From positions 32,678 through 49,473 of the forward strand of contig CAYVAH010000003.1 of the NCBI GenBank assembly GCA_964449215.1: DNA of 16,796 bases, in the 5' to 3' direction. The position numbers and the translations under genes are program-made. Below, in pieces: positions 2,994 to 13,096 of this stretch. The DNA is from Candidatus Undinarchaeota archaeon. GTDB taxonomy: Archaea > SpSt-1190. Under the pieces are notes generated by a model, which worked only from the letters and a program-made list of their open reading frames with translations, searched no databases and was not told the DNA's origin. How positions within the stretch are numbered: the stretch's first letter is position 1; the number at the start of each line of letters is the position of its first letter.

Positions 2994-3067
2994 GGAAGGT
3001 GGATACAAGGAAGTTTTTAAGGATGGAAACAGAAAAATTAATAATTAAGTAACCATATAGTAGTTAC

Positions 3068-4110
3068 ATGGTGTATTTCATTCGGTCTGAAGGGGCTGGA
3101 TGCCTTCCAAGCCGAAGCTCTAGTAGACAAAACTCTCAGGGAGTTTGAAAAGATTTATGGCATCCATGAAAATATAGATGAAAAAATTGTCATAAATTTC
3201 GATGATATTTCCATGTTTGGAAACCGCATGACCATCACCACCGGTTGTTTCTACCTCGAGTCGGGCCTTATAGAGATTTTCTGGAAGAACATTATAGAAC
3301 TCTCAAAGGATGGAAACTACAAGGATATGTTTGTTAATACTTTGCTCCACGAACTCGTCCATTTCAAGCACTACACAAATGTGTTTGGAGAAAACGGCAG
3401 AAGGGCAGAAGAAACGATAAAAACCTATGAGGCACTGAACAAAGCGGGGTTCGTAAAACTGGTAAGGGACTGGTGGCACAGGAGAAGGTACCACATCACC
3501 AGAACCTGCATAGACTCAAAATACGGAAATTATATTGAATTTGAAAAGTCAGGAATGAAAGACCGTATCGAGGATATTGACGGGATGTTCGTGAGAGCTT
3601 TCCTTTATGTAAGGGGCACCAAAAAATATGGAAACACCGAGGAGCTCAATGAAATAAAAACCGTATTTGAGGATTTCCTCTCCAGCTGTGATGAGAAAGC
3701 ATGCAAAGAAGGAGAAGTGCTCAACACAAAGGATTATTCAAGTCTCATATGGGATGAAATTGCCTCCTGTGATGCGGGGAGTAACAATGAAGAGGGATAC
3801 GGAACTGTTACCGAAGCAATAGCATACTACACCACAAATGCGTGGATAGGCTACTCGGAAAGGGGGGATACAACCCCAGAAGGAGCTCGAGGACCTGATA
3901 TCCCACCTGAAAGAGTATGAGTGTTACAAGGACAATGTGGAGGCATTAGAAACCATATTGGAACTGCATAAAAGGGCTGTTAATGTAATGGACTACAAGG
4001 ACGCGGTAAGGCATATCGCCACCAGAATTGTAAATGCAAAAGACCTGAGCGAACTCAAAGAGATATGCTACTCCACGGCCAGGAGGGTGAGTGGTAATGG
4101 GGCTGGTTAA
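3068..4110 (+). pseudogene. HExxH zinc metalloprotease paralog 1, interrupted by two +1 frameshifts (near 3083 and at the G6 tract 3862-3867)
   Basis: ATG 3068 MVYFI, then +1 shift to GLKGLDAFQAEALVDKTLREFEKIY, in frame with ORF 3213 (LLHELVHFKHY). After G6 another frame reads IQPQKELED...NVEALETILELH...AVRHIATRIVNAKDLSELKEIC to TAA 4108-4110. All three segments align with the intact neighbour 4156-5232. Sequencing error is not excluded. Confidence 0.85.
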
Positions 4111-4155
4111 TGCCAGCCGAACAAATTTTTTAAAGATATAATCACTCTTAAGTTA

Positions 4156-5232
4156 ATGGTGTATTACATAGGGGAAGCCACCAGGGACGTGGAACCCCTG
4201 GTGGACAGCACCCTCAGGGACTTCAAAGAGATTTTCCCGGATACTGACACAGAGGAGCTGAAGGACTACATCATAGTGAACTTTGGGGACACAGAGGTAT
4301 TTGGCTACCGACATCCTTCCACAGCAGGAGCCTTTTACTTCACCGGGACCCTTGGAGCTGTTGAGCTCTTTCACAAAAACATCAAGGAATATCGCATAGA
4401 CAGCGCCCCCAACGCACCCTATGAAGAACGGTTCAAATATGTGCTGCTTCATGAACTCGTTCACCTCAAGCACTACTTCAACTTGCTTGACAAAAAACCA
4501 GGGAACCCGGCGGAGCTAATTGAAGCATATAAAGCTGCAGAAAAGCTCGGGCTCATAGAAACCATGGACAGCTGGTGGCAGGGAACCAGAATGAGAACCC
4601 TCGGCGCAATCTACAGTGACACCCCTGTGGGGTGGAACTGCCGGCTTTCAGACAGACCAGAAAAGGAAAGGGAATACCTGACAAACATGGTGAAAGACAG
4701 GGTAAAAATGGCCGACACTCTGGTGGAAAAAATCATCCCGTATTTTTCCAGCCGCTATGAAGAGCATGAAAAGCTAAAACAGGTCAAAAATCTGCTCTCT
4801 GAGTTCATGGATGAGTGGGAGAGAAGATTTTTATTCACATTTCACCCCCCAAGACCTACAGAACCTAAGTTCATCAAGGATCCCGAGTGGAAGGACCTGC
4901 TCTTTTTTGATCAGGGGATTAGCAAAGAAAAAGACGAAAAATACATGTCCATCGGGGAAGCCGTTGCCCACTATGTGGTGGAAGCCTGGAAGTATGGATT
5001 GAAAGAAGGGATTGAAAAACTCAAGCAAAACATCCCGGAGAGATACCACAATGAAAACATCGCTGCACTTGACAGTATATACAGGCTCCACTGGGTCGTC
5101 GCGAGCATAGCCGGGGGTGAGCAGAAGGCAGTCAAGTTCATCGCTCCAGAAATTGTAAAGGCAAAACACCTCACGCACTTGGAGCATATCTGCGATTACT
5201 ACATCAGATGCCCGGAAGAAATAAGGGTTTAA
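4156..5232 (+). CDS. Putative zincin (gluzincin-like) metalloprotease, paralog 2, unknown function
   Basis: 358 aa; LLHELVHLKHY zinc motif, upstream AGAFY strand, distal GEAVAHY (ExxA candidate third ligand); TTTTTAAA TATA about 25 nt upstream. Confidence 0.8.
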   Translation: MVYYIGEATRDVEPLVDSTLRDFKEIFPDTDTEELKDYIIVNFGDTEVFGYRHPSTAGAFYFTGTLGAVELFHKNIKEYRIDSAPNAPYEERFKYVLLHELVHLKHYFNLLDKKPGNPAELIEAYKAAEKLGLIETMDSWWQGTRMRTLGAIYSDTPVGWNCRLSDRPEKEREYLTNMVKDRVKMADTLVEKIIPYFSSRYEEHEKLKQVKNLLSEFMDEWERRFLFTFHPPRPTEPKFIKDPEWKDLLFFDQGISKEKDEKYMSIGEAVAHYVVEAWKYGLKEGIEKLKQNIPERYHNENIAALDSIYRLHWVVASIAGGEQKAVKFIAPEIVKAKHLTHLEHICDYYIRCPEEIRV

Positions 5233-5567
5233 TAGGGGCACCTGGAAATATTGTGGTGGAAAGGCAGACGAGTCTGACCTTTGCCCTGGCGGGGCTGGCA
5301 ATGCTATCCTTGCTCTCCCACGAGTTCTTCTCGGCGCATTTCAACCTGAGAAACCCCTCTCTTTTCCCCCTGGCCTTCCTCTACATCTTCGCCTTCCCCT
5401 TGATGCTCATCTACGACGTCTACACCTATCATCACGAAGGTAAGCCAAAAGACCTGTGGAAAATCGGTTTTCTCGGGCTATTCGGCATTCTGGGAGCCCT
5501 CCCGCGCCTGGAAGTCAGTTTCTACGGTTTTTTCGGGCTTTTCGCCTTCTTCGGGCTTAAAAAATAG
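5208..5567 (+). CDS. Small hypothetical membrane protein
   Basis: About 4 hydrophobic segments; true start may be GTG at 5253 or 5256. Confidence 0.65.
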   Translation: MPGRNKGLIGAPGNIVVERQTSLTFALAGLAMLSLLSHEFFSAHFNLRNPSLFPLAFLYIFAFPLMLIYDVYTYHHEGKPKDLWKIGFLGLFGILGALPRLEVSFYGFFGLFAFFGLKK

Positions 5568-5637
5568 CAAGACTGCCTCTCAAAGCAACTTTTCACACCC
5601 ACAGTGCTGTCGGGCGGAGCGCTTGCCTCACTTTTGA

Positions 5638-5684
5638 TCAACCTTTTCACAGCGAGGCGAAGCCGAGCGTGGTGAAAAGGTTGA
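5638..5684. repeat. 13-bp perfect inverted repeat with a structured 21-nt spacer (hairpin element)
   Basis: TCAACCTTTTCAC (5638-5650) / GTGAAAAGGTTGA (5672-5684); spacer contains GGC-GAA-GCC; flanked by CTTTTGA. Confidence 0.85.
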
Positions 5685-5690
5685 GGGACT

Positions 5691-5837
5691 GGGCCCCGGT
5701 TGGGACGGTCGCGTCCCGAGCTGCGACCCGCTTTCGCTCCTCGACAGCCACGGTTATCGCCGCCCCTACGAGCAGAGATGTCAGATGGGAACCGGGCACT
5801 GACAGAGCTCTGGTCGCGTCGGAACCGGGATTGCCCC
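5691..5837 (-). ncRNA. Unidentified structured non-coding RNA (about 147 nt)
   Basis: GC-rich intergenic segment whose ends pair (GGGC..CCCGGUU / AACCGGGGCCC) and enclose several helices; TTAAATA TATA at 5865-5859, 22-28 nt upstream; G-U pairs favour the minus strand. Confidence 0.6.
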
Positions 5838-5840
5838 AAA

Positions 5841-5870
5841 ACATATATTAACTTGTTGTATTTAATCGTA
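5841..5870. promoter_or_regulatory. Divergent promoter region (ncRNA candidate / PRC-barrel gene)
   Basis: AT-rich ATATATTAA (+) and TTAAATA (-) TATA-like boxes; AGGTGAT Shine-Dalgarno at 5873-5879. Confidence 0.5.
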
Positions 5871-5883
5871 ACAGGTGATGCGG

Positions 5884-6126
5884 ATGGAAGAAAGGATCAG
5901 AGGTAAGGATATCATGGGCAAGACAGTGGTCAGCAAGGAGGGAAGGAAGTTCGGTATGGTGGGCGATGTCACGTTCGACCCTGGAACGGGAGAACTCTTG
6001 AAAATCATACTTGCCAATTCCACTCAATATGCCAAGAACCTTCTGGGGACCGAGCTGAAGGTTCCATTCAGCGCGGTCGTCAGCATAGGGGATTTCGTCA
6101 TTGTGAGTGAAGAGGACCTCGTTTAG
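5884..6126 (+). CDS. Single PRC-barrel domain protein (CdpB-like cell-division protein candidate)
   Basis: GKTVVSKEGRKFGMVGDVTFDPGTGEL...VPFSAVVSIGDFVIV is a typical PRC-barrel; SD AGGTGAT supports ATG 5884. Confidence 0.88.
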   Translation: MEERIRGKDIMGKTVVSKEGRKFGMVGDVTFDPGTGELLKIILANSTQYAKNLLGTELKVPFSAVVSIGDFVIVSEEDLV

Positions 6127-12841: not shown

Positions 12842-13096
12842 GGGTGCCGGTGGTAGGCCCCCTTCTGTTTCCCCATCAGGGTTAGCGGCATCCATCTAAG
12901 CGGCACGTAGCCTTGCACCCAGCCGGGCGGAGACCGTTTCATCCCTCGTGCCTTCGTCCTTCGCTTTCGCACATCCGTCCAGCACTCGGGTATCGTTTCT
13001 GTTTCCCCGCCAGGGGCTCTCGCCCCTCCGGCCTTTGCGGGTGGGGGGACCTTCCTCGCTCCCCTTTCGGGCTCGGCTGCCGCCCCACCGGCTCCC
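12842..13096 (-). ncRNA. rnpB: RNase P RNA, type-M-like architecture
   Basis: Minus strand shows CR-I GAGGAAGGUCCCCCCAC, CR-II ACAGAAAC, CR-III UGAAACGG, GGGUGCAAG, CR-IV GCUUAGAUGGAUG, CR-V ACAGAAGGGGGCCUAC; P1 GGGAGCCGGUGG / CCACCGGCACCC. Confidence 0.96.

Follow-up and report, generated by a model that had tools for sequence, protein, structure and literature searches.

The RNA1 Locus

The question raised by this locus is what kind of gene occupies the space in front of a PRC-barrel gene in an archaeal genome of 788 kb (95% complete). The whole stretch of DNA that was analysed, hereafter the window, is 16,796 nt long and lies on contig C3 of that genome. The original prediction had placed an independently transcribed, stable RNA of a possibly undescribed class on the minus strand of this space, and we regard it as virtually certain that the locus, termed RNA1, is a real RNA gene. 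Conservation, covariation, a TATA-like box and the lack of an Rfam match also back the fuller reading of a separately transcribed, stable and probably undescribed RNA. The conserved stretch (5688–5842) sits between a convergent and a divergent neighbour:

5208–5567, plus strand: ORF of 119 amino acids, convergent neighbour, without a Pfam hit
5632–5683, no strand assigned: palindromic repeat directly downstream of RNA1, outside the conserved RNA
5859–5865, minus strand: TATA-like box of the RNA1 gene (TTAAATA)
5875–6126, plus strand: PRC-barrel gene, divergent neighbour and synteny marker

All RNA motifs quoted in the original prediction were found in the sequence, and its upstream TTAAATA box was located as listed. 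An ORF of 105 amino acids that overlaps RNA1 is unlikely to be coding, since the lengths of the homologues differ by non-multiples of three. The PRC-barrel gene is present in all 17 genomes of the class and is thus not specific to RNA1. The gap that had been attributed to rnpB does contain an archaeal RNase P RNA (12842–13096, 99.8 bits), the sole Rfam match in the window. The claim that there are only two long non-coding gaps was, however, overstated, as gaps of about 200 nt (3009–3212) and 235 nt (3921–4155) are present as well. At 3213–3920 and 4156–5232 lie two ORFs that look related to each other and carry a zinc-peptidase-like HELVH motif; they have no Pfam hit and are variable among the relatives.

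The palindromic repeat is a dispersed element of the form CAACCTTTT...AAAAGGTTGATCAAAA, often with a CGACAGCAC module next to it, and it sits behind stable-RNA genes. In the window it runs on from 5632–5683 to approximately 5575, and further copies were seen behind the RNA2 gene described below, behind tRNA-Phe (C3) and tRNA-Glu (C27), and at the starts of contigs C16 and C46. It is separate from the RNA and absent beside several homologues.

Homologues and the Paralogue RNA2

A BLAST search of 61 genomes revealed homologues in three of the nine other genomes of the family and, in addition, two partial matches in the host genome itself. The latter are one gene, RNA2, which is divided between two contigs, C37 and C16, whose ends overlap, and is contiguous in two metagenome contigs (L210 and L213). 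Divergent copies of both RNAs were added by neighbour-protein synteny searches in genomes G001 and G006, and a covariance model built from 15 copies added an RNA1 in G008 and an RNA2-type copy in G002. The six loci from the metagenome scan comprised three new RNA1 variants, one identical RNA1 and two copies of the host genome's RNA2. With L209 and L213 dropped as duplicates, and L210 standing for the split RNA2, 17 distinct copies were available. On this basis RNA1 and RNA2 appear to be two paralogous, separately promoted non-coding RNA genes, and the partner gene had escaped the original prediction.

At least one of the two RNAs was found in eight of the ten family genomes and both in six; the two genomes in which neither was found are 72% and 83% complete. 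No genome has more than two significant copies, which lie at fixed sites, one each of RNA1 and RNA2. No match was obtained in the seven other genomes of the class or in 141 archaeal genomes outside the family; because strict filters were applied in this wide search and no more than 14 candidates were scored in each genome, distant relatives may have been missed. A pattern scan of GTDB contigs returned at least 120 loci, and among the matches listed two (L077 and L101) were true RNAs and the others chance. Viral contigs gave seven chance matches and then none, and phages and plasmids gave no match. A stem in genome G014 that resembles a bulge-helix-bulge (BHB) proved to be the antisense strand of an ftsZ-like gene, and two weak model matches (L229 and L230) fall within coding genes.

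The missing partners were not detected by pattern in G002, G004 or G005, and the best score at 17 syntenic loci searched with the filters off was 9.1 bits. In G008 the contig stops where RNA2 would sit. The RNA2-type copy that was found as the only one in G002 (L222, G002:C36:4878-5090) is the most divergent of all, with 182 nt and a shrunken domain-A loop, in a genome that is 90% complete; its partner may be unassembled, or this may be a single-gene homodimer state. About 150–300 nt downstream of the RNA1 of G001 we noticed a second GC-rich stretch (L174) that ends in the GAGGCCCAGTCCC word of the RNA. The covariance model does not match it, and it is perhaps a decayed partial duplicate. A weak C/D sRNA-like match (sR4, 27.6 bits, below the cut-off) lies at L191 2211–2258, about 800 nt from the RNA2 of G001.

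Conserved Fold

Folding of RNA1 by itself gave a modest result (z = −2.24, with 2 of 200 shuffles equally good), and it is the homologues that identify it as a conserved RNA. RNAalifold, applied to RNA1 and RNA2 apart, produced the same skeleton for both: a terminal motif, helix P1 and a junction carrying domains A and B. Domain A is variable, and domain B is common to the two RNAs. In RNA1 the elements are:

5823–5829, minus strand: 5' strand of helix P1, pairing with 5695–5701
5768–5817, minus strand: domain A, the previously proposed arm A with a longer stem
5702–5766, minus strand: domain B, a 7+2-bp helix with a bulged A, stacked on P1, followed by a 4×4 internal loop
5754–5757 / 5712–5715, minus strand: 4×4 internal loop of domain B, followed by a stem and a large loop
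5731–5736, minus strand: conserved turn CGAAAG between the segments B5 and B3 described below, from the alignments

Across the core, 93.6% of the cells in 15 copies were paired and 18 of the 28 pairs changed on both sides, against at most 52.6% pairing in slid controls; the shuffle control for this set is inflated by the relatedness of the copies. Helix P1 was the clearest element, with 99% of the cells paired and both-side changes in six of its seven pairs. The covariation expected of a structured RNA gene was thus present among the homologues, and the unpaired, purine-rich elements (the 4×4 loop, the bulged A and the CGAAAG turn) are near-invariant.

The fold originally proposed stood in part. 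When scored on the seven close RNA1 copies, and without its 3' hairpin, it reached 86.6% paired cells and 11 covarying pairs, while the skeleton described above reached 93.7% and 16. Its terminal helix (100% paired) and arm A (93%) held up, whereas the inner helix, arm B and the kissing loop lacked covariation. In these copies, the two parts of the inner helix, CCGA/UCGG and GCGACC/GGUCGC, were paired in 61.5% and 73.8%, respectively, and arm B in 82–86% with no both-side changes. The 3' hairpin GGGACG-CGAC-CGUCCC shares two G's with the inner helix, and therefore the two cannot both form. In the suggested intramolecular kissing loop (CGGUU/AACCG) the first pair is kept in one of the seven copies and the other four in all seven, with no changes on both sides; for the loop of arm A, a 9-bp pairing predicted with the second RNA is the better explanation.

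A mobile-element remnant or viroid-like RNA without present function is scarcely credible as an explanation of the locus. The restriction to one family and the dispersed palindromic repeat that adjoins RNA1 would suit it, but the few copies at fixed sites, the strong structural covariation, the absence of matches in viral contigs, phages and plasmids, and the separateness of the repeat from the RNA all argue against it, so this reading is already largely refuted. A MITE was rejected likewise, as the copies are not dispersed and covary strongly in structure.

BHB Ends and Predicted Processing

The BHB, the cutting signal of the archaeal tRNA-splicing endonuclease EndA, is described in PMC6379350 as a pair of 3-nt bulges with a 4-bp helix between them. 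Both bulges, each 3' of a 4-bp helix, are present in all 17 distinct copies of RNA1 and RNA2. The original prediction had noticed one 3-nt bulge at the ends of the RNA and missed the second, as well as the outer helix, which together complete the BHB; processing at this motif was accordingly not part of it. In the window the ends are:

5837–5842, minus strand: leader, 5' strand of the BHB outer helix, with one contiguous pair in this copy
5830–5836, minus strand: BHB 5' strand, GGGC (5833–5836) and the bulge AAU (5830–5832)
5688–5694, minus strand: BHB 3' strand, GCCC (5691–5694) and the bulge AGU (5688–5690)
5689–5830, minus strand: predicted excised RNA1 of 142 nt, probably circular, as deduced from the BHB geometry

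The cut is presumably made after the second base of each bulge. The central helix, GGGC:GCCC, has all four pairs in 16 of the 17 copies, with one AGGC and one GGGU variant, and the inner helix is 4–8 bp long in all 17. The outer helix has 4–8 bp in 11 copies and less than 4 bp in six, including the RNA1 of the window (1 bp) and one copy with none. Its sequence varies freely yet pairs, as four of its five columns change on both sides. As RNA1 and RNA2 thus carry the cutting signal of tRNA splicing, both probably become circles, of a predicted 142 nt for the RNA1 of the window and 182–200 nt for the long forms.

Every one of the 10 RNA1 copies has a TATA-like match 29–39 nt upstream of the central helix. 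By pattern it was found in 13 of the 17 copies altogether, and in the remaining four, which are all RNA2, visual inspection showed (T/C)TTAATAT comparably far upstream. Transcription would therefore start near the outer helix, and the transcript would consist almost entirely of an intron, the exons being mere tokens. As for the enzymes, EndA is encoded in a single copy in all 17 genomes of the class, and RtcB was found in the host genome, the one genome checked for it. EndA is encoded on the contig of RNA2, about 3–4 kb away, in all seven genomes that have RNA2, and a conserved block of genes for small membrane proteins, ending at EndA, follows RNA2 (G000:C16:125-3991 and homologues). In the surroundings of the 16S gene (G000:C5:21800-23600), a simple fold and scan gave no clear BHB processing stem, in contrast to RNA1 and RNA2.

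According to PMC6379350, relaxed BHB motifs are cut efficiently by only two types of EndA. The single EndA of the host, with 176 amino acids, looks by its size like the strict type. This, together with the short outer helix of the six copies, counts against the processing of such relaxed motifs.

Further indications of cleavage came from the 10 long copies (seven RNA2 and three long RNA1). In nine of them an internal loop is exactly complementary, over 6 nt, to GCCC and the two bases that open the 3' bulge, with the variants CUGGGC/GCCCAG, UUGGGC/GCCCAA and AUGGGC/GCCCAU; the tenth pairs five of the six. In the precursor, GCCC is held by the leader strand, so this junction pairing would be possible only after the cut. 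A cut linear RNA would also free the junction bases, and the pairing hence supports cleavage and not ligation. The seven short RNA1 copies, including that of the window, have no such internal loop. We observed that in short RNA1 the junction base at the sixth position nonetheless varies in step with the internal loop of the RNA2 from the same genome (G, U and A in G000, G003 and G007/G009, respectively), which could reflect pairing in trans or a concerted evolution of the two ends.

Comparison with Known RNAs

Rfam gave no match at RNA1 in the window and none at the RNA in 14 homologue loci, the outcome expected for an undescribed RNA. The original prediction had set RNA1 apart from tRNA, 5S, SRP and C/D RNAs. 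The SRP, 5S and RNase P genes sit elsewhere in the genome, along with the 16S gene and the 5' part of the 23S gene; the 5S gene is cut by a contig end. The canonical SRP RNA gene is full length (114 bits), lies on another contig and gave no alignment above z 3 in 30 tests. For 5S rRNA there was no RF00001 match and no consistent alignment to the lineage's own 5S, with 1 of 150 tests above z 3. ARAGORN predicted no tRNA genes in the window, and the flanks are variable helices of 0–8 bp, which does not suit a tRNA, a tRNA intron or a permuted tRNA. A C box (RUGAUGA) was present in 0 of 15 circles, which does not suit box C/D sRNAs. The CUGANGA core expected of viroid-like RNAs and retrozymes was likewise absent from all 15, and there was no Rfam ribozyme match either. 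Words resembling tmRNA, Y RNA, group I introns and hairpin or HDV ribozymes were not conserved in the alignments, and no Ro60/TROVE gene was found in the host genome.

A known RNA (SRP, RNase P, 5S, an rRNA piece or a tRNA intron) that is permuted or has diverged strongly beyond Rfam detection would have a precedent in the permuted SRP RNA reported in PMC4731332. The Rfam matching covered unpermuted forms, and one hairpin of RNA2 bears, to the eye, a loose resemblance to SRP helix 8. Against this, the host has canonical SRP, 5S, RNase P and 16S genes and a partial 23S gene, the flanks do not form a tRNA, and the doubled circles showed no consistent likeness to the 5S, SRP, RNase P, 16S and 23S RNAs (scattered values above z 3 in 6 of 270 tests). 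We consider this explanation highly unlikely.

A two-subunit ribozyme or RNP enzyme, circularised for stability, is improbable, though less so. The VS ribozyme works as a dimer, and near-invariant unpaired purine-rich elements combined with long-range loop pairings are what such an enzyme might display. On the other hand, there is neither an Rfam ribozyme match nor a hammerhead core, protein enzymes already account for the maturation, and the 4×4 loop deviates in sequence in three divergent RNA2 copies.

RNA1 and RNA2 share no Rfam homology with RNAs of the OLE, ROOL and GOLLD kind, while intermolecular-pair covariation is present in a small number of genomes. Literature searches brought up no description of the two RNAs, although one might be contained in the motif table of some supplement, and the parts consulted of a genomics paper on vent DPANN archaea (PMC8091004) make no mention of non-coding RNA. 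Judging by these comparisons, no known RNA family appears to fit RNA1 and RNA2.

Predicted Contacts between RNA1 and RNA2

The B loop of each RNA contains two segments that are complementary to both strands of the partner's domain-A loop, giving four predicted contacts, X1 to X4. The segments of RNA1 are:

5794–5798, minus strand: segment A1 (UGCC), whose predicted partner is the 5' portion of the B loop in RNA2 (X3)
5785–5793, minus strand: segment A2 (GGUUCCCAU), predicted to form 9 bp with the 3' portion of the B loop in RNA2 (X1)
5737–5742, minus strand: segment B5 (GAGGAG), whose predicted partner is the 5' strand of domain A in RNA2 (X2)
5725–5730, minus strand: segment B3 (CGGGUC), whose predicted partner is the 3' strand of domain A in RNA2 (X4)

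The strongest covariation between the two molecules was seen at X4, where four of the five columns change on both sides and the six genomes have CGGGUC/GACCCG, AGGUC/GAUCU, GAGUC/GACUC, GAUUUA/UAAAUC, GGAA/UUCC and GGGA/UCCC. With 25 of 30 cells in Watson–Crick pairs, the true partners at X4 were the best of 720 label permutations. A scan of 5-column windows also placed X4 first; here the true pairing had the maximum (33, the next being 32) of 48 within-clade permutations, a margin of one point obtained with the B domain of RNA1 anchored on an invariant motif. When the four contacts were summed, cross pairing amounted to 19–24 bp and self pairing to 11–16 bp in all six genomes, and the true RNA1–RNA2 partners were the best of 720 permutations and of 48 within-clade permutations, also without X4; the contact segments had been picked by eye before testing, and the six genomes are related and form two clades. 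Singly, X2, X3 and X4 were each in the top two of the 48 within-clade permutations, while X1 was not discriminating within clades (24 of 48).

Two other searches gave a more mixed picture. A cruder scan of raw MAFFT columns in four genomes, in which all had to pair, did not separate true from swapped partners, and when half loops were searched freely for duplexes, X1 and X3 emerged in the close clade, though with much noise. In two genomes B3 is largely paired inside RNA1 (unpaired probability 0.02 and 0.19). The polarity of the contacts, 5' with 5' and 3' with 3', implies arms that meet head-on, which by its geometry suits intermolecular pairing better than pairing of adjacent arms within a single molecule and would fit a pseudo-symmetric dimer or an alternating ring.

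It is also conceivable, if unlikely, that BHB-processed monomers or homodimers act alone and that the cross-complementarity is the relic of an ancestral self-docking module plus chance. The paralogues do carry the same loop modules, self pairings of some length exist, the raw-column scan was negative and one genome shows a single RNA. The excess of cross over self pairing in every genome, the success of the true partners against all swaps and the both-side changes at X4 nevertheless speak for pairing between RNA1 and RNA2.

In the close clade, X1 is equally complementary to loop C of 5S rRNA. The two RNAs could in principle form a ribosome-related regulator, with RNA1 mimicking this loop and RNA2 being antisense to it. 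The word GUUCCCAU is found in most short RNA1 copies and, in all six family genomes examined, in loop C of 5S, and the RNA2 loop is complementary to it over 9 nt in the close clade. Two divergent genomes, however, keep the 5S motif while RNA1 and RNA2 change together, and this regulator, which finds no support in the 5S alignments above either, is in our view very improbable.

Proposed Model

We therefore return to the pairing of RNA1 with RNA2. On balance we favour, with some reserve, a model in which BHB-spliced, probably circular RNA1 and RNA2 associate as a pseudo-symmetric heterodimer; it is built from sequence comparison, and its steps differ in strength. First, EndA would cut at both bulges and remove a short leader and trailer from each RNA, which is very probable. 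Next, RtcB would join the ends into a circle, as seems likely. In the long forms, the freed GCCC and the two bases following it would then pair with the internal loop and lock the mature fold, for which our confidence is high, slightly below that for the cut. Each B loop would subsequently dock head-to-head on both strands of the partner's domain-A loop, which we consider fairly likely; the resulting four short helices, 19–24 bp in total, would yield a pseudo-two-fold heterodimer or an alternating oligomer.

The last step is the weakest. The most conserved element left unexplained is the helix on P1 with the bulged A and the 4×4 loop, of which each partner RNA has one. Tentatively, the dimer might be a scaffold presenting these two helices to a protein or another partner; it would not be a guide, an mRNA switch or a known ribozyme. 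We rank this role as the likeliest, ahead of the two-subunit ribozyme and the 5S-related regulator, while still giving it less than an even chance.

Relation to Known Systems and Significance

The phi29 pRNA and the VS ribozyme are three-way-junction RNAs that are linked between molecules by loop–loop pairs, and both form homo-oligomers, which belong to a packaging motor or a satellite RNA. RNA1 and RNA2 resemble them in the three-way junction and the predicted intermolecular loop–loop pairs. Closer parallels in oligomerisation are the natural homo-oligomers OLE, ROOL and GOLLD (Kretsch et al., 10.1101/2024.12.08.627333) and the assemblies of the short RNAs manA and EGFOA, also homo-oligomers, reported by Ren et al. 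(10.64898/2026.07.01.735769). As presented in these sources, they share with the predicted assembly of RNA1 and RNA2 the oligomerisation by loop contacts, the intermolecular covariation and a function that is largely unknown. They differ in that, in our case, the products of two distinct genes are predicted to pair with each other and to become spliced circles.

For the ends, the closest parallel is the permuted SRP RNA of Thermoproteus tenax, which according to Plagens et al. 2015 (PMC4731332) has BHB ends and a circular product, its cleavage having been demonstrated in vitro. Like that RNA, RNA1 and RNA2 have free-standing genes with a TATA box and a leader and trailer that form a BHB. The T. 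tenax RNA is cut by EndA and the junction of the circle forms a functional loop, for which a counterpart is predicted here. Unlike T. tenax, where this RNA is described as the only SRP RNA of the cell, our host has a coexisting canonical SRP gene and two paralogues without an SRP match. Circles derived from BHB motifs are also known from archaeal pre-16S and pre-23S rRNA and from tRNA introns (PMC12558985, PMC6379350), with which RNA1 and RNA2 would have the BHB-dependent excision and circularisation in common, as predicted from sequence. In contrast to these, RNA1 and RNA2 have no rRNA or tRNA host and no C/D boxes, the "exons" are a few variable bases and the "intron" is the product.

In the sources consulted, the known BHB circles are by-products of tRNA or rRNA maturation or a repaired SRP RNA. 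If our model is true, a dedicated pair of splice-circularised RNAs that recognise each other would put the splicing machinery to a new use and provide a natural example of a hetero-oligomeric RNA architecture. With 142–200 nt, specific predicted contacts and natural variant pairs, RNA1 and RNA2 are testable in vitro without culturing of the host, and they might find use as a circular RNA module that assembles itself. That both genes are kept in reduced genomes (0.6–0.9 Mb) points to a real role. At roughly even odds, then, a genome of less than 0.8 Mb may maintain two intron-only genes whose products would be made into circles by the tRNA-splicing enzymes, switched in their folding by the splicing and, co-evolving with each other, assembled into a lock-and-key, RNA-only heterodimer or ring with an essential job.
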